23,483 bases of DNA. Origin: a virus. The position numbers and the translations under genes are program-made. The stretch lies in UHGV virus genome UHGV-0227276; one strand, 5' to 3'. Under the pieces are notes generated by a model that was given only the letters and a program-made list of their open reading frames with translations, was not told where the DNA came from and made no database searches. Below are positions 5,242 to 23,483 of the stretch, in pieces. Each line of letters starts with the position of its first letter. Position 1 is the stretch's first letter.

Positions 5242-5751
5242 TTAAATTTCTGGTAGTTTGGGCCAGTTAATATCAGGGGCTGTGCTGATATCTATTGCTG
5301 CTACCACGTCGATATAGTCAAGAACGGAATCGAGCTTTACTGTTTCTTCCGCAGTTAATTTTCTTCCCGCCTGCAATTTTAGTTGAATCAGAACAATGGA
5401 AGACATGGCATCATCAATCAGTGACTGGCGTTGCAGTTCAGCCCCTTCCACTGCTGCGTTATGTTGCGCTTTGGTATCCGTCACCCATTTCTCACCATCC
5501 CACTTATCGTATGGTGTTAACGGAGCAATAGTGGTTGTCTTTTCAGGGTAATCTCCCGGCACTGTGATTTCTTTTGAGTCCCCCGTTTCGGTGTTATAGA
5601 CGATTTCACCGCGATGGTCTGGCACATATTCCCATGATCTCAAATCCAGAGTTCGACAAGACACATAACCTGACTTATATGAACCAGGAGCATCTAAACA
5701 CGCTCTGATTCCATCACCAACGCTACATACACGAGGGAGTATTGGTAACAC
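5242..5751 (-). CDS. G: tail fibre assembly protein (Tfa/gpG-like), 5'-rearranged: residues 18-169 are Tfa-like, the first 17 codons derive from an inverted segment
   Basis: C-terminal ...TAEETVKLDSVLDYIDVVAAIDISTAPDINWPKLPEI and central SWEYVPDHRGEIVYN resemble lambda Tfa as I recall it; codons 10-16 of the annotated N-terminus are encoded by a 20-bp inverted-repeat copy. Confidence 0.7.
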   Translation of the reverse strand: MLPILPRVCSVGDGIRACLDAPGSYKSGYVSCRTLDLRSWEYVPDHRGEIVYNTETGDSKEITVPGDYPEKTTTIAPLTPYDKWDGEKWVTDTKAQHNAAVEGAELQRQSLIDDAMSSIVLIQLKLQAGRKLTAEETVKLDSVLDYIDVVAAIDISTAPDINWPKLPEI

Positions 5752-5812
5752 AGGTGGGAGCGAAACCCGTCCACGAAATATTGCATTTAACTATATCGTG
5801 AGAGCTGCGTAA
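5723..5812 (+). other. displaced 3' end of tail fibre gene H (29 codons plus TAA), on the opposite strand to H
   Basis: Plus-strand frame continues from the repeat (LIPSPT) into LHTRGSIGNTGGSETRPRNIAFNYIVRAA and ends TAATG, overlapping the start of the Tfa N-terminal fragment. Confidence 0.55.
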
Positions 5813-5952
5813 TGGATAAAGCCGTATTAAATAGCGAACTTATTGCCACGAAGGCGGGGAATATTACCGTCTATAACTATGATGGTGAAACACGGGAATA
5901 TATTTCTGAATCAACTGAATATCTTGCTGTTGGCGTCGGTATTCCCGCACAT
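5812..5952 (+). pseudogene. detached 5' fragment (47 codons) of the tail fibre assembly gene, on the opposite strand to G
   Basis: MDKAVLNSELIATKAGNITVYNYDGETREYISESTEYLAVGVGIPAH resembles the Tfa N-terminus (lambda Tfa ...[32 protein letters not shown], from memory); joining it to G codon 18 onward restores an in-frame 200-aa Tfa. Confidence 0.6.
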
Positions 5953-7489
5953 TCGTTGGTGATGGAATCAGAGTCCCTCCGGAATCGGCAGCATCAAGCC
6001 CCCGGCCTTGCGTATATGCTTTTCTGAAGATTGCCGCCAGTTCCCATTCCTCTTTTGAATCATACCCATCGTTGGCTACAACCATATGGCGGTGTTTTTC
6101 CAGCATTCCAGCCTGAAGGCTCAATAAAGCACGCCCAGCATCAATACCACGCCCATCATCCCAGCCACGAATAAACTCACCACGTAAATCAGGCAATTTA
6201 TTTGTCGGATAAACCTTTGCCAGTTTGGGATATTCTTCAGCCGAAAAAGCCGCTCCGTTGCATTTCAGCCAGCCTGTCGGTGGAGTGGCAGAAGGCCACG
6301 GAACAGGGACACCAACAGGTAATGCAGAGCCATCCCCTAAACCAAGATAATCAAGAACGCCCTGTGCGCTGGGCCTGCTAAGAATGGTACGCCCAACACT
6401 TGTCAGTGCAGTTAAGGCAGCTCGATCTTCCCCTGTAAAATAAGGGAGTTTATCTTTTGATGTAGAAAGCCCTGCCAACGCCGTTAAAGTAGCATCCTTT
6501 GGCTGCTTCCCCGCAAGGGAGTTAGTTATTGTCGTGGCAAAGTTCGGATCATTCCCCAGCGCCGCTGCCAGTTCGTTCAGCGTATCCAGTGCCGCAGGTG
6601 CAGAACCCACCATTGCTGCAATTGCCGATTTCACAAAAGCGGTAGTGGCAATCTGTGTATTGTTGACCGACTGCGCCGCCGTGGGAGCTGTTGGCGTTCC
6701 GGTGAGTGCCGGACTCGACAGCGGCGCTTTTTGTGCCAGTGCATTGTTAATGGTGGTACTGAATTTCGGATCATTGTTAATGGCTGCGGCTATTTCTTTC
6801 AGCGTGTCCAGGGTGGCTGGCGCACCATTAATAAGAGCCGTCAGAGCCGCCTGAACAAACGCGGTGGTCGCAATCTGCGTGGTGTTATTCCCTGCTGCTG
6901 GCGTTGGCGCTTTGGGTGTCCCGGTAAACGTCGGACTTTCTTTGGGTGCATACTGTGAATGCGGGTCCGGTGCGGCAAGATGTTTTGCCATCAGGTCATC
7001 CACGTACACCTTCAGCTCCAGTACCTTATCATCCACATACTTGCGGGTTGCCAGCACGACGGCAGGGTCGATTTTCAGGGTGATATTGTCCGTGCTGCTG
7101 GTTATCAGCACCATGCGCACGGTCTGGGTACGTCCGCTGCCTTCAGCCAGTTGCGGCTTATAGCTTTCCGGGCAGTTTCCCACGGCAATCAATGCCCCGG
7201 ACTCATCAAACAGGCCCACTTCACGTATCCACCAACCGCCCTCGTTTTCAGGGATCACCTGTTCAGCAATAATCTGGCTGCTGTTCTGCGGGTCGATATA
7301 GAGCATATTCAGCGCAGCCCGGCGTTTCTCATTTACCAATGCTGTCTGCTTGGCGTCCGGCGTTGGCAATGTTCCGCCGCCATCGCCGACCGCCATATGG
7401 GTAATTTTTAAAGGCACACCGAGCGCGGCGGCGCTGGCAAGTTTCGCCGCGCCAATATCCGTCAGCAGGGTATAAAATTTTGTGCTCAT
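5864..7489 (-). CDS. H: tail fibre protein (P2 gpH-like), 541 aa; last 29 codons are antisense of the detached tfa fragment
   Basis: N-terminus MSTKFYTLLTDIGAAKLASAAALGVPLKITHMAVGDGGG; internal tandem repeats; C-terminal WLKCNGAAFSAEEYPKLA...LPDLRGEFIRGWDDGRG tail-fibre domain; start overlaps the I stop (ATGA). Confidence 0.85.
   Translation of the reverse strand: MSTKFYTLLTDIGAAKLASAAALGVPLKITHMAVGDGGGTLPTPDAKQTALVNEKRRAALNMLYIDPQNSSQIIAEQVIPENEGGWWIREVGLFDESGALIAVGNCPESYKPQLAEGSGRTQTVRMVLITSSTDNITLKIDPAVVLATRKYVDDKVLELKVYVDDLMAKHLAAPDPHSQYAPKESPTFTGTPKAPTPAAGNNTTQIATTAFVQAALTALINGAPATLDTLKEIAAAINNDPKFSTTINNALAQKAPLSSPALTGTPTAPTAAQSVNNTQIATTAFVKSAIAAMVGSAPAALDTLNELAAALGNDPNFATTITNSLAGKQPKDATLTALAGLSTSKDKLPYFTGEDRAALTALTSVGRTILSRPSAQGVLDYLGLGDGSALPVGVPVPWPSATPPTGWLKCNGAAFSAEEYPKLAKVYPTNKLPDLRGEFIRGWDDGRGIDAGRALLSLQAGMLEKHRHMVVANDGYDSKEEWELAAIFRKAYTQGRGLDAADSGGTLIPSPTNVREYRRQQQDIQLIQKYIPVFHHHSYRR
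6470..6934 (-). repeat. diverged tandem duplication of about 76 codons inside H
   Basis: PTFTGTPKAPTPAAGNNTTQIATTAFVQAALTALINGAPATLDTLKEIAAAINNDPKFSTT... is followed by PALTGTPTAPTAAQSVNNTQIATTAFVKSAIAAMVGSAPAALDTLNELAAALGNDPNFATT... Confidence 0.7.
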
Positions 7490-9977: not shown

Positions 9978-10701
9978 ATTTACATGTAAAATGGAAAAAT
10001 TAATGGCTAATAAATCTTCCTTTACCACTAAAAAAAATGACATTAAACCTGATCCGATAATTGCAATATTAGAGAAAAGAGCCAAATCAGCCCGAATCAC
10101 CATGCTTGTTTTTATCTACTTAATATTTACAGCTATGTTGCTTGTCTTTAGTGGCGTAGTAATGATGAAATCAAAAAATGACAACCCTTTCAAATCTTTC
10201 ATTAATATGCTTTATACTCCAAATGGAGTTGATTTTAGTAATTTCATTCCCAAAACCTCCCAAAACAATATCACATTACCTCTAAAAAAAGAGGAAAAAA
10301 GAGTAGAGGAAGGGACAAATCAAGACGAATTGGAACAATTCGTAAAAAGCATAAACATTAAGTCAAGAATAATGGATTCATATCTTTCATGGAAAAGCCC
10401 ATCACAAGAACTAGCAGAATCTGTTGCATCGATAGTGATTAGCCTAACGCTCTTAATTTTTGTCGGCTTCGTGATGAAAGCATCAATAATGTTTATTAAA
10501 TATCACATGCAGATTGGGAATGATTATGATAACCAAAAAATAGCCTATTTATTAAGCAAAGGAGATATTGATGTTTTCGAAAAAACATTAGGCTGCTTAA
10601 GAACACATAATATCACATTCGAAAAAACTCCGAATTTACCTCAAGAAAAAATAATTGATGGCTTAATAAATGCCTTGAATATATCAAAGAAAAACCAATA
10701 A
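9970..10701 (+). CDS. hypothetical two-transmembrane-helix protein (AT-rich moron between V and S), up to 243 aa; start uncertain (alternatives 9991 or 10003)
   Basis: Only plus-strand gene in a minus-strand late block; strongly AT-rich; predicted TM helices ITMLVFIYLIFTAMLLVFSGVVMM and VASIVISLTLLIFVGFVMKASIMFI; annotated first ATG overlaps the V promoter dyad. Confidence 0.6.
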   Translation: MAQFTCKMEKLMANKSSFTTKKNDIKPDPIIAILEKRAKSARITMLVFIYLIFTAMLLVFSGVVMMKSKNDNPFKSFINMLYTPNGVDFSNFIPKTSQNNITLPLKKEEKRVEEGTNQDELEQFVKSINIKSRIMDSYLSWKSPSQELAESVASIVISLTLLIFVGFVMKASIMFIKYHMQIGNDYDNQKIAYLLSKGDIDVFEKTLGCLRTHNITFEKTPNLPQEKIIDGLINALNISKKNQ

Positions 10702-19161: not shown

Positions 19162-20547
19162 TTACTCATCTACTCTGATTTTTTGTTTTTTATTATTTTG
19201 AGTTAAGACATTTATGGTAATAGATGTATACGGATGAAAGTCAGGCACTATACTTTTAACCTCTCCATTTTCAAGAAAATGATGTGCTATTGAAGGAAAT
19301 AAATCAGGATCTACAGGATATTTAGCATTAGGATTATGATACATATTTAAACCTTCTGCCCATGTTTCTGTAATATCGCCTTCTTTCACTTCAAAACTAA
19401 ATGCTGCTGGATATAATGCCTCTGGGTCATGATCATGGCAGTAACCACTCCTAAATAATCTAAGGTCACTTCTTCCAAAACCAGCCAGTTTTCCCATCCG
19501 ATTAAACTTCGATATAGTACCACTATTAGAACTAAGGACGGCCGAAATATTTTCAGACTCATCCAAGAAGAAAAAGCCTGAAGGAATTTCCTTTTTCTCA
19601 AATTGATGCGATATAATTTTCTTAGTTGCTAAACTGTAACATCCATCTTCAGATTTAACATGCTCATAGCGAATACCATAAAGATACTGCCAAAGTGCAC
19701 TATGGGACCAAATCATAGAGTTTGGTTCATGAAAATCAGCAATTGCGAAAATTAAAGGATTCCCCTTAACATGTTCTAGATCCCAGTATCGAGTTTTCTT
19801 TTTCAGTTTAGAATAGAGAGAACTTCCAAATTTAATCGGCATATAATTCTCTATTTTCTCTAGCAATTCTTCCTTACTTTTAGGTTCAGATAGCATTTCA
19901 GATGATTGATTAATATCATTCCCTGTTGGATTAACCGTTACAGCTTCAATGCAAATAGTATTACCATACTTACGTGCCACATAATCAGGGGCATTAAACT
20001 GCCTATCTAGCCAAAAGTGTTCCTCTCGTAAATATGCGAAAAGATATAACTCCCATAGCCGGGCATCAAAACCTGTTGTCTGAAACTGCTCTATAAAATT
20101 CCCGTCGACATCCTCAAAATGATTCATCATTTCCTTGATTATCCCTGTTGCAGGCGACCAGTTCGCATATTTACCAAATAATGAAAAATGATGATGAAGT
20201 TTATCTGGTGTAACTATAGGTGTGAATAAATCCATTGCTTTATAAGTTTCATCACCTTGTGGAAATACTTTTACGTTTAATTTAGTATGCTTCCGCATTA
20301 ATTTCTTTAGTTTTGCTCGTGCAGAATTCATTTCTGAAACACTAGTAAATAGGTCAATACATCTATATCTCCCACTTAAGTCTCTTGCTAAAACAATACC
20401 GCTATAATCTTCATCAATTTGATCCAATAATAGTGCCCCTAGCAGGAACTCTCTCGGACTACAGTACCACTCAAACTCATAGCCTAAAAGTTCAGTATTT
20501 GGCATTCTGGTCCAATCAACAAAAGCATTAAACCTCTCTTTACTCAT
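19162..20547 (-). CDS. hypothetical 461-aa cargo protein, AT-rich, no motif recognised; candidate accessory/defense gene
   Basis: Long uninterrupted ORF in AT-rich DNA between Q and the cos-like site; no Walker A or other motif recognisable by eye. Confidence 0.6.
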   Translation of the reverse strand: MSKERFNAFVDWTRMPNTELLGYEFEWYCSPREFLLGALLLDQIDEDYSGIVLARDLSGRYRCIDLFTSVSEMNSARAKLKKLMRKHTKLNVKVFPQGDETYKAMDLFTPIVTPDKLHHHFSLFGKYANWSPATGIIKEMMNHFEDVDGNFIEQFQTTGFDARLWELYLFAYLREEHFWLDRQFNAPDYVARKYGNTICIEAVTVNPTGNDINQSSEMLSEPKSKEELLEKIENYMPIKFGSSLYSKLKKKTRYWDLEHVKGNPLIFAIADFHEPNSMIWSHSALWQYLYGIRYEHVKSEDGCYSLATKKIISHQFEKKEIPSGFFFLDESENISAVLSSNSGTISKFNRMGKLAGFGRSDLRLFRSGYCHDHDPEALYPAAFSFEVKEGDITETWAEGLNMYHNPNAKYPVDPDLFPSIAHHFLENGEVKSIVPDFHPYTSITINVLTQNNKKQKIRVDE

Positions 20548-20634
20548 TTTTTTTATATCAAGAAAGCGTTAGCTCTGTAGTGCATGTCTATGCCGCATGA
20601 GATCGCATGATCGTTTGAGGATCGTTTTTGCTAA

Positions 20635-20659
20635 GGCCCGCCAGAACTGGCGGGCTTTT
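20635..20659 (+). terminator. rho-independent terminator-like hairpin inside the repeat-bounded segment
   Basis: GGCCCGCC-agaact-GGCGGGC followed by TTTT on the plus strand. Confidence 0.45.
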
Positions 20660-20704
20660 GCGTAGATCATGCAGGTGCATGAAAACCACTACATAAAGCG
20701 GGCA

Positions 20705-20723
20705 GGCGTGGCGGGGATACGAG
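20705..20723 (+). other. cos-like motif (resembles the 19-nt cohesive end of 186/P2), in inverted polarity relative to Q/P
   Basis: GGCGTGGCGGGGA... matches the first 13 nt of the 186 cohesive end as I recall it (GGCGTGGCGGGGAAAGCAT; P2 GGCGAGGCGGGGAAAGCAC); located between A and Q where P2-like cos lies. Confidence 0.4.
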
Positions 20724-20749
20724 CGCGCGTATTTGGTCGTTACTTAGCT

Positions 20750-20824
20750 TTTTTTTATCAATAGATTAAGCTAACTTAAGTCTTTTTAGGAAAAAATATT
20801 TTTTCGTGATGAGGTAGAAAGATG
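20750..20824 (+). promoter_or_regulatory. AT-rich promoter-like region with GAGG Shine-Dalgarno and ATG (20822), currently pointing away from the cargo gene
   Basis: AT-rich tract then GAGGTAGAAAG-ATG, reading in frame into the right-hand repeat copy (MSFLDIKKMSKERFNAFVD...) and ending after 41 codons. Confidence 0.35.
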
Positions 20825-20940
20825 TCTTTTCTTGATATAAAAAAAATGAGTAAAGAGAGGTTTAATGCTTTTGTTGATTCAAGGGCTCGTTGTTCAACCT
20901 TGCTGACGCCAGAAGCAAGTTCAGACGCCAGCAACGTTTC

Positions 20941-21174
20941 TTAATGCAGCCAGCTGTCGTCTTCCCACACCTTCTGCATAATTTTCATCACTTGTTTTCT
21001 TTCTTCGTCCAGTTGCAGTCCGGTTAGTTCCACACCGTTAGAGCTACCTTTGCGAATGCGAATTACCGTTTTGGGATACAGGGGGCGCAGATTGCGGTAA
21101 AGCTCGGATTCAAGGGCGTCCAGGGTAGACTGGCTAATCTTCTGCTCTTTATCGATCATTATTTCAATGCGCAT
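20941..21174 (-). CDS. DinI-family protein (DNA-damage-inducible protein I-like), 77 aa
   Basis: MRIEIMIDKEQKISQSTLDALESELYRNLRPLYP...IMQKVWEDDSW follows the DinI pattern (E. coli DinI MRIEVTIAKTSPLPAGAIDALAGELSRR...ILQETWESADDW, from memory); GAGGTGA Shine-Dalgarno 5 nt upstream. Confidence 0.8.
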   Translation of the reverse strand: MRIEIMIDKEQKISQSTLDALESELYRNLRPLYPKTVIRIRKGSSNGVELTGLQLDEERKQVMKIMQKVWEDDSWLH

Positions 21175-21184
21175 AAAAGTCACC

Positions 21185-21373
21185 TCAGCTGATGACATCC
21201 ATTGAGCGGTTGTATTCGTGGGTTCTGATTTTTGCCATGAGTTCATCAGTCAATTCAGAAACCCACTGCAGAGCCAGCCCCTTCTCTTCATCACTACACT
21301 CACTAGCCGCTACAAGCTTAAGAAAAAAATCAATGCGCTGGAGCTTCAAAGACTCCAAAAAATAGTCCTGCAT
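21185..21373 (-). CDS. hypothetical 62-aa protein, first gene of the LexA-box operon (possible Tum-like antirepressor part)
   Basis: GGAGGAAAG Shine-Dalgarno then ATG (MQDYFLESLKLQRIDFF...); ends 10 bp before the DinI-like start. Confidence 0.45.
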   Translation of the reverse strand: MQDYFLESLKLQRIDFFLKLVAASECSDEEKGLALQWVSELTDELMAKIRTHEYNRSMDVIS

Positions 21374-21416
21374 CTTTCCTCCTATGACACCACACGCAAT
21401 GCTGTATGCATAACCA

Positions 21417-21432
21417 CTGTTTATATTTACAG
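21417..21432 (-). promoter_or_regulatory. LexA (SOS) box
   Basis: CTGTTTATATTTACAG fits CTGT-N8-ACAG with an AT-rich core, 44 nt upstream of the 62-aa gene start. Confidence 0.6.
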
Positions 21433-21526
21433 TATATAATAATCTTACTGATGTAAAACGATTTTTTACGTTCATCAGCCTGATATGCCTGGTATTATTA
21501 AGAGCACGAATTGTTAACCCGCGTAA

Positions 21527-23137
21527 TTAATACAGGTTCCGCCACTGATCATCTTCCTGCAAACGCTGGTTCCGATAGAAGATACGCAGGCCTGCTCCTG
21601 ACGGAATACTGCCTCCGCGAAGGAGTAAATCGACCTCTTTCTCGCTGCCATCAAATCCTCTGGACTTCAGCTCATACACGAGCTGCAGTCGCTGATGGTC
21701 TGTAATTCGCTGTTTGTAGTCTTTACGCCGTTTCGGTTTCACCAGGCGTAACCTTGCTGCCAGTTCCCGGCGCTCTTTTTTGCTCATACTGTGCAGGTAA
21801 TCGTGCAACTCCTTGTCATCCATGCTGGTAATGTCCGTTCTGGGGTCCCCATCAGCTGATTTATCTTTCTCCTGTTGGTTCAAATTTTCAGCAAGGGGAC
21901 AGTTATTGCCACGAGTCCAAGGGGCGCAAGCGCCCTGGTCGGCTGCCGCCTCCTGAACGTCAACGGCTTTACGAACCATTTTCCACTTCACTGCATGAGT
22001 GCAGATCTTGCCCTCTGCAATGGGTGACCAGATGCCATAAATACGAATACCGTGATCGCCATAGGCGGTCGGCTCTTCGTTGATTTCATAAGCGGTTCTG
22101 ATGAGGTGATATTTACGGGGAACCAGTACGCCGCCCTGCTTCATGATGTAGGTGGCAAAGCAACCAGCATCAGCTGCAGCCAGAATGGCATCAAGGCGCG
22201 GGTTATCCAGTACCGGCGCACCTGCTTTTTTGTCACCCTGTTGCCTTGCCGCCTGACCAGCCAGCAATCGCAGTTCACGGTAAGCCTGACGCCCCGGAAT
22301 GCCAAAGAAGCGGAATTGCTGAACACGATGCAGAGACGCCCAGGCATTAACGTATTCAGCGTTATCACGCAGAGATTTACCCGTTTCCTTGCTGATCTCG
22401 CCAGCCAGACCACGCCCGTCAATGTTCTTACTGATATATTTCGCGATGTAGCTTGTCGGCGTTCCTTTACGCGGGTTAATCAACTCAGACTTAAAGCGCG
22501 GCCCAGTGTTATTGCCCAGCTCCTCGCGGTCTTCACGGATGGCAAACTTACGCAGTAATGCAGTGATGGCGCGGCGGTCTTTTTTGCGCATAAAACACAA
22601 CAGGTGCCAGTGAACTGTACCGTCATGATGCGGCTCAGCCACCCGCACGCCATACCAGCGCAATCCGGCTTTGTGCATCGCCTTACGAAATGCAGCAAAC
22701 ATGCCGACCAGATAGTCGCTGCTTTGTCTTACCGTCGAGTTTGTCCAGGTCGGGTTGGGTCTGCCGTTATTGAGCGTGGAATGGAAACGCGACGGACAGG
22801 TGATAGTGTAGAAAACGGCGCAGTCACTGCGCATTTCCGCGATAAGCTCCAGACCTTTAACACAGGCCATCATCTCATTGCGGCGATGCGCCGGGTTGCT
22901 GCTGCTGGCGTTTACCACATCTTCCATATCCAGCGTGTCGCCGTCTTCGTTCACCAGTTCATGAGAACGGAAAAACTCCAGCGACTTACGGCGCTGCTCA
23001 CGTTTATGCATCACGGCTTCATAGCTGACATAGGGGGATGCTTTTTTGCTGACCAGGCAGACAGCACGCAACTGCTCTTCCCGCCATTCGCAACGCATCT
23101 TCCATAATTTCCGATACCACCAGTCGGCACACAACAT
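21527..23137 (-). CDS. A: replication initiation protein A (rolling-circle initiator, P2 gpA-like), 5'-truncated in this arrangement (536 aa ORF)
   Basis: VHWHLLCF (HUH-like) and YIAKY paired-tyrosine motif; reading frame closes 16 codons upstream of the annotated start, exactly at the edge of a 52-bp inverted repeat. Confidence 0.85.
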
Positions 23138-23384
23138 ACGCGTGCCTTGATGCAGCTTGTGGTGATTTGTATGCCACCGATGACGTTAAGCCAGAAGAAA
23201 TCCGCAAGACATGGGAAAAGGTGGCAGCGGAAACCCTGCGTCTGGATGTCATCCCGCCTGCGTTTGAGCAACTCCGTCGGAAAAGAAACCGCCGTAAACC
23301 CGTGCCCTATGAACTCATTCCGGGTTCGCTGGCGCGTATGTTGTGTGCCGACTGGTGGTATCGGAAATTATGGAAGATGCGTTG
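23091..23384. repeat. 52-bp perfect inverted repeats (23091-23142 and 23333-23384) flanking a 190-bp segment inside the 5' part of gene A
   Basis: Exact reverse-complement match CGCGTATGTTGTGTGCCGACTGGTGGTATCGGAAATTATGGAAGATGCGTTG; both copies encode [15 protein letters not shown] on opposite strands. Confidence 0.9.
23143..23332 (+). other. inverted fragment of the A coding region (63 codons) lying on the opposite strand to A
   Basis: Plus frame ...[52 protein letters not shown] runs in frame into the repeat-encoded [15 protein letters not shown]. Confidence 0.45.
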
Positions 23385-23483
23385 ACTCATTTCAGGCAGA
23401 ATCAGCAGGCCGTCCAGCCCTACATGGCTTGCCATAAAACGAAAAGATGCAGATAGCTGGCTGTCGCGTACATGCTCCAGTCG

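Follow-up and report, generated by a model that had tools for sequence, protein, structure and literature searches.

The right end of the window, the 23,483-nucleotide stretch analysed here as a whole (UHGV virus genome UHGV-0227276), carries a perfect 52-bp inverted repeat inside the replication gene A. This repeat is the by-product of a strand flip; it is not an element and has no function. It is the scar of a one-off strand switch, one of four in the window and seen in no other genome searched; rather than a biological element it is probably either an artefact of amplification or assembly or a mutation private to this sequence. Gene family, kind of rearrangement and probable artefact are each known already, and nothing in the arrangement is new as a system. 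The window comprises a P2/186-like (Peduoviridae) prophage from the tape-measure gene to gene A, and its collinear blocks are 100% identical to Escherichia coli SCU-484 (NZ_CP051744.1).

Anatomy of the rearrangement in gene A

A repeat search over positions 22500–23483 reported a single inverted repeat, the arms of which (23091–23142 and 23333–23384) are 52 nt long, 100% complementary and 190 nt apart. Chance cannot account for a perfect match of this length. An earlier note, made from the letters of the window, had recognized both the repeat and the splitting of gene A at this place, and the two observations are confirmed. The region is composed of the following segments.

21527–23137, minus strand: C-terminal remnant ORF of A, 536 aa, equal to residues 269–804 of the intact protein, with HUH-type motif and YIAKY
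23091–23142, minus strand: left arm, A sequence that has kept its native place and orientation, 100% identical to and collinear with SCU-484 up to 23142
23143–23332, plus strand: 190-bp spacer, inverted A coding sequence, about residues 203–265 (63 codons)
23333–23384, plus strand: right arm, inverted duplicate of the left arm, in place of 48 bp of different A sequence (SCU-484 locus L004, 28641–28688)
23383–23483, minus strand: upstream A coding sequence in native orientation, residues about 154–186, ending at the window edge

On the plus strand the spacer together with the right arm encodes residues about 211–283 of the intact 804-aa SCU-484 protein. The 190-bp segment is the exact reverse complement of SCU-484 A (100%), in agreement with the previous assignment of this segment as A coding sequence lying on the wrong strand. 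When the window is compared by BLAST with the SCU-484 prophage locus (L004), the region falls into three pieces, each of them 100% identical.

Window up to 23142: L004 up to 28449, collinear (window 21001–23142 checked)
Window 23142–23384: L004 28398–28640, reverse complement
Window 23383–23483: L004 28689–28789, collinear

Accordingly, 239 bp of A (28450–28688) are swapped for the reverse complement of an overlapping stretch of 243 bp (28398–28640), with the net result that the 190-bp spacer is inverted, 52 bp (28398–28449) are doubled in opposite orientation and 48 bp are deleted. The earlier note had described the event as a simple flip accompanied by an extra copy of the repeat; this description is incorrect, as 48 bp of A are also lost and the segment as a whole is longer by 1 bp. 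Microhomology at the junctions of this event amounts to 1 bp (G) and, at junction 2, to 2 bp (TG). In the window the rearranged junctions read …CATACGCG/TGCCTTGATG… and …GATGCGTTG/ACTCATTTC…, and are also given as …CACAACATACGCG/TGCCTTGATGCAGC… and …GGAAGATGCGTTG/ACTCATTTCAGG…; those of the intact arrangement read …CATACGCG/CCAGCGAACC… and …CACCTGATCC/TGACTCATT…. The anatomy of the rearrangement is thus given directly by the alignments. What is new in the window matches its neighbouring sequence exactly in reverse complement, and a single excursion to the other strand followed by a return suffices to produce it. Correction of a quasi-palindrome was considered and rejected, because the 48 bp that disappeared do not resemble the arm as an imperfect copy would, and the spacer is itself inverted.

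The terminal inverted repeats bound a unit of 294 bp, as they would in an IS or a MITE, and a small mobile element of this kind inserted into A was therefore considered. Every base within and between the arms is, on the contrary, A sequence and 100% identical to the opposite strand of SCU-484; there is neither foreign DNA nor a target-site duplication, and the net gain in length is 1 bp. With all of the sequence being A-gene DNA and no target-site duplication present, insertion of an IS or MITE is refuted as an explanation, and we assign it next to no probability.

The intact gene A and its remnant

In E. coli SCU-484 the intact A protein consists of 804 aa and is annotated as 'replication endonuclease'. 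A Pfam search places the Phage_GPA domain (PF05840) at its residues 188–510, covering profile positions 1–321 and hence the full length. In the ORF of the window only positions 78–321 of 321 are found; the first 77 positions are absent and the domain is not full-length. The 536-aa ORF lacks the 268 N-terminal residues, and the A codons upstream of it are either inverted or deleted. The deleted 48 bp (L004 28641–28688) encoded QDQVKRLSTLVAAHMS, so that 16–17 codons are gone.

Alignment of SCU-484 A with P2 gpA (NP_046795.1, 761 aa) is collinear over SCU-484 residues 53–626, i.e. about 600 residues, with 32% identity and an E-value of 2e-81. P2 ARLFNDEWW (211–219) aligns with SCU-484 ARMLCADWW (266–274), and P2 YIAKY (450–454) aligns with the YIAKY of the window, which is found at residues 230–234 of the 536-aa remnant. 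The window sequence HHDGTVHWH aligns with HHDGTPHWH of P2 gpA, and thus the HUH-type motif and both active-site tyrosines (YxxxY) are present. By these alignments MLCADWW begins at residue 269 within a longer protein and does not mark a natural start. The earlier note had proposed that its reading of an interrupted gene be given up if homologues of about 536 aa beginning at MLCADWW were to exist; instead, the homologues are about 761–804 aa long and collinear through the region, this being the case for P2 gpA, for SCU-484 A and, among the matches listed, for 119 of 120 IMG/VR loci.

The remnant shares with P2/186-type gpA the region of the HUH-type motif and the paired tyrosines (Y450 and Y454 in P2), and a putative ori-like sequence lies inside the gene. 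It differs from this protein type in that the gene is split and that the first 268 residues and 77 domain positions are missing from the ORF. Proteins of the P2/186 type comprise about 760–805 aa and have an N-terminal region contiguous with the catalytic core, whereas the window ORF has 536 aa and this continuity is lost. One could nevertheless regard the 536-aa ORF as a naturally short A protein with an internal start, comparable to A* of phiX174, in which case nothing would be broken, and an ATG preceded by a weak AAGG does open a long ORF that holds the catalytic motifs. This ORF begins, however, at position 78 of 321 of the Phage_GPA domain, the homologues are collinear and 761–804 aa in length, and the upstream A codons are present in scrambled form. 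As a description of the locus a natural short A is rejected on the domain start, the homologue lengths and the scrambled upstream codons, and we consider it extremely improbable.

Departure from intact A occurs exactly at the arm edge (23142/23143), and the stop codon follows 43 nt beyond. The statement that the A frame closes 16 codons upstream of MLCADWW is therefore correct in that 16 codons are followed by a stop, and slightly loose in placing the closure exactly at the repeat edge. Likewise, deletion of 23333–23384 combined with reversal of 23143–23332 does yield, as proposed, a frame that is open to the window edge, and yet the product falls 17 residues (QDQVKRLSTLVAAHMSM) short of the real protein. 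The frame of this reconstruction stays open because the missing 48 bp and 3 microhomology bases add up to 51 nt, a multiple of three.

A putative ori-like sequence is located within A at about 21899–21925 on the minus strand (GCCCCTTGGACTCGTGGCAATAACTGT). It is identical in 21 of 27 positions to the P2 ori around nick position 29892 and lies in homologous codons; the P2 nick site is found 1,858 nt into A. The ori-like sequence sits in the intact part of the gene and is untouched by the rearrangement. Cutting and joining by gpA was rejected as the cause of the event, since the ori-like sequence is more than 1.1 kb away from the repeat and the 14 breakpoint contexts contain neither an ori-like nor a common motif.

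P2 gpA acts in cis. It is also essential and introduces a site-specific nick at the origin, according to the annotation of P2 (NC_001895). If the rearrangement were real, the N-terminal A fragment would run from a start outside the window to residue about 186, enter antisense arm sequence and stop after 26 codons, with ORF 23307–23435 as its visible end, and the second part would be the 536-aa remnant lacking part of the conserved domain. With an essential, origin-nicking and cis-acting initiator split in this manner, the prophage could then not replicate. The earlier conclusion that A is non-functional or internally started is borne out insofar as A is split in the sequence as it stands; a natural internal start is rejected as described above, and the inference of a defective prophage is doubtful, because the A event is one of four similar events in a window otherwise identical to a sequenced strain and the window ends lie about 100 bp from junctions, so that the organism itself may not carry the rearrangement.

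Uniqueness of the arrangement and sister events

Outside the window, the right arm was met in none of the genomes searched. This part of A is carried by 1,221 of 5,426 complete E. coli genomes, and coverage of the rearranged 684 bp reaches 80% in not one of the 5,426. Searches with junction 27–29-mers of the A event gave no match in GTDB species representatives, IMG/VR or JGI metagenomes, with the normal junction, as a positive control, being found in at least 120 IMG/VR contigs. The 52-mer is present in both orientations in none of 120 IMG/VR loci (among the matches listed, with 8 mismatches allowed); the relatives contain the spacer in the sense orientation only and without a second arm. An exact-product look-up of two new ORFs, the 536-aa A remnant and a chimeric 541-aa tail fibre, returned no record for either of them. 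The uniqueness of the arrangement is in this way a direct observation.

These searches bear on the possibility that the segment is a programmed invertible one, i.e. an inverton or phase switch with the 52-bp arms as recombinase sites and an orientation that toggles A. A perfect inverted repeat does flank a short intragenic segment, and arms of 52 bp could in principle permit rare RecA-dependent flipping. Against this, the right arm is absent from relatives (0 of 120 listed IMG/VR loci; 0 of 5,426 E. coli genomes at the threshold of at least 80%), both arms are ordinary A coding sequence, and if just the spacer is flipped, the frame remains shifted by +1 and runs into stops, so that neither orientation encodes A. 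No invertase is annotated in the 35-kb prophage region of SCU-484, where the only recombinase is the phage integrase, located at the far end and outside the window. The resemblance to Hin/Gin/Cin and fim-type invertons is confined to inverted repeats flanking a short segment; in contrast to these systems, the arms in the window are not conserved, there is no recombinase, the alternative orientation is not observed and a flip would not restore the gene. As a conserved system the inverton is refuted by the absence of the arm, the frameshift on flipping and the lack of an annotated invertase, and we regard it as very unlikely.

The event in A is accompanied by three further local inversions, each of them a stretch replaced by the reverse complement of SCU-484 sequence.

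Event 1, 1–102: reverse complement of L004 5274–5375; part of the tape-measure gene, truncated where the window begins
Event 2, 5703–5956: reverse complement of L004 11074–11327; 254 bp inverted, spanning the border between tail-fibre gene and tail-fibre-assembly gene; 17–20-bp inverted duplication on the right side
Event 3, 20566–20879: reverse complement of L004 25869–26182; 314 bp inverted, 4 bp lost

Event 3 contains a 52-bp inverted duplication (20514–20565 / 20828–20879), the same overlap length as in the A event. It is located at the 5′ end and in the upstream region of the PD-T7-1 gene, whose first two annotated codons are replaced. Altogether, the four events affect A, the genes for tape measure, tail fibre and tail-fibre assembly, and PD-T7-1 at its 5′ end; every other gene annotated within the window is intact. 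No complete E. coli genome contains event 2 or event 3, and neither was found in the scanned collections (GTDB representatives, IMG/VR and JGI metagenomes). Over all seven junctions the microhomology is 1, 0, 3, 0, 0, 1 and 2 bp, which is about chance level. The four local inversions fall within 22.6 kb of aligned window, whereas a scan of 120 related IMG/VR loci, about 0.8 Mb when aligned with the prophage of SCU-484, revealed none.

Beyond the inversions, two SNPs and one homopolymer indel are the only differences between window and SCU-484. The SNP at position 66 is a private transversion inside the inverted piece of event 1, 36 nt from the junction, and that at 5983, also a private transversion, is found 27 nt from a junction of event 2 and changes A to S in the tail fibre; 31-mers containing the two private SNPs have no match in IMG/VR. 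The indel is an intergenic A8 versus A9 homopolymer at 10030.

The two ends of the window lie 102 and 101 bp from inversion junctions, and the right arm (52) and the terminal piece (99) together measure 151 bp. This suggests that the window is a whole contig with ends tied to junctions. Contigs of related drafts frequently terminate within A, close to the same position.

An independent inversion inside A was found in a related prophage of a complete genome, E. coli GPT21-003_1 (NZ_OY754834.1; locus L003, 3250–3856). This inversion is clean, comprises about 609 bp and shows junction overlaps of 7 and 2 bp; 12 bp separate its right boundary from where the 52-bp arm begins, and A is annotated in that genome as three pseudogene pieces.

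Origin of the strand switches

With respect to where and when the rearrangement arose, we infer and lean towards an origin outside the cell, either in a strand-displacing or chimera-forming amplification or library step or in the misjoining of small pieces during assembly. In the A event, copying would run along the gene to 23142 and then switch to the opposite strand, resuming 191 nt ahead; it would return through the spacer and 52 nt past the point of departure, thereby generating the second arm, and rejoin the original strand 48 nt further on. The outcome is a gene A cut into an N-terminal fragment and the 536-aa C-terminal ORF. With an origin outside the cell, gene A of the organism would probably be the intact 804-aa gene. 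A technical origin is favoured because four scars are combined with almost no other change relative to SCU-484 and with contig-like ends about 100 bp from junctions, because two unrelated events share an overlap of exactly 52 bp and the SNPs adjoin junctions, and because the ends of related draft contigs recur inside A near the same point.

Chimeras of this general type are known. Strand-displacement amplification produces mostly local, inverted chimeras with 0–21 bp of junction complementarity at a rate of about one per 10–22 kb (PMC1855051). The events in the window are similar to MDA chimeras (Lasken & Stockwell 2007, PMC1855051) in being local and inverted, in their short or missing complementarity and in their frequency of about one per 10–22 kb. 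In contrast to the window, where paired junctions restore the strand and are fixed in the consensus, MDA chimeras are single junctions in individual reads. Their junction microhomology is also higher than the chance-level values of the window, at least 2 bp having been reported for 77% of junctions. Counting against an artefact is furthermore that each event needs two switches which return close to the start, and random chimeras should not be fixed by consensus assembly at normal coverage.

Two computational origins were evaluated in addition. The overlap of k-1 expected from a de Bruijn graph (k=53) fits the 52-bp arms and thus event 3 and the A event, the fourth, but neither event 2, with overlaps of 3 and 20 bp, nor the appearance of the new junction k-mers. 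An in-silico operation of the type 'flip and add repeat' is not favoured, as the consumed lengths (239 against 242 bp and 266 against 314 bp) do not fit overwriting or insertion and the SNPs cluster at junctions. Minor alternatives, the in-silico origin among them, take up the remaining weight.

The main rival to a technical origin is replicative template switching in vivo (fork stalling and template switching, MMBIR-like), by which the four local inversions would have arisen, possibly in one burst, leaving A as a true pseudogene and the prophage as multiply defective in A, tape measure, tail fibre and tail-fibre assembly. Template-switch and fold-back mutations, including FoSTeS/MMBIR, usually involve excursions of tens of bp. 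A four-point model of template switching is said to go back to Löytynoja and Goldman in 2017. The geometry found here, in which the strand is left, the other strand is copied nearby and the original strand is regained nearby, is the classic template-switch signature. As in known template-switch mutations, a stretch has been exchanged for the reverse complement of sequence close by, a change that a single excursion with return can describe, and point changes lie near some of the junctions; unlike them, the window has excursions of 243–314 bp, microhomology at chance level and four events in 23 kb. The private point changes adjoin two junctions, as they would after error-prone synthesis following a switch, and the independent inversion inside A of NZ_OY754834.1 also speaks for events in vivo. 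Loss of a cis-acting, host-killing replication gene could moreover be selected.

On the other hand, four complex events against two SNPs are far from normal mutation spectra, and the background is zero events in about 0.8 Mb of relatives. The occurrence of the identical 52-bp overlap in two events, together with ends about 100 bp from junctions, indicates a technical cause; microhomology does not exceed chance, and no junction is shared with any other genome or metagenome searched. Switching in vivo is nevertheless kept as an explanation because the paired junctions restore the strand, microhomology is at chance level and no simple assembler model accounts for all four events. We consider it possible and clearly the less probable of the two origins. 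A more specific and unlikely version would be that the four inversions are the real result of one replication catastrophe confined to the prophage, a small bacterial analogue of chromoanasynthesis. An aborted induction might have been its cause: the cis-acting initiator would have nicked and fired the origin in situ, the element would have been scarred as forks collapsed and strands were switched repeatedly, and the cells would have survived through the destruction of A.

Biologically, the case is minor: at best a prophage replication gene has been inactivated by a rearrangement private to this sequence, and more likely the scar is technical. If the events were real and confined to the prophage, they would represent an unusual record of clustered template switching. 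For annotation, the case calls for caution, as a perfect intragenic inverted repeat mimics a switch or mobile element and it is the comparison with a 100%-identical genome that exposes it as a by-product of a strand flip. Neither the label 'defective prophage' nor the label 'element' should be given to this sequence without read-level support.

Two genes at cargo positions of the window are worth recording. An ORF of 179 aa at 10162–10701 on the plus strand has no Pfam and no PADLOC match; it is flanked by the baseplate gene V and gene S but runs on the other strand, and this place is a P2-type cargo position. The ORF at 19162–20547 on the minus strand (461 aa; 469 aa as annotated in SCU-484) has no Pfam match and is identified by PADLOC as the anti-phage defence protein PD-T7-1 (PDLC04073, E=1e-196). 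Its gene has the portal gene Q on one side and, on the other, the DinI-like gene that lies upstream of A, and this interval is a known cargo hotspot in P2-like phages.
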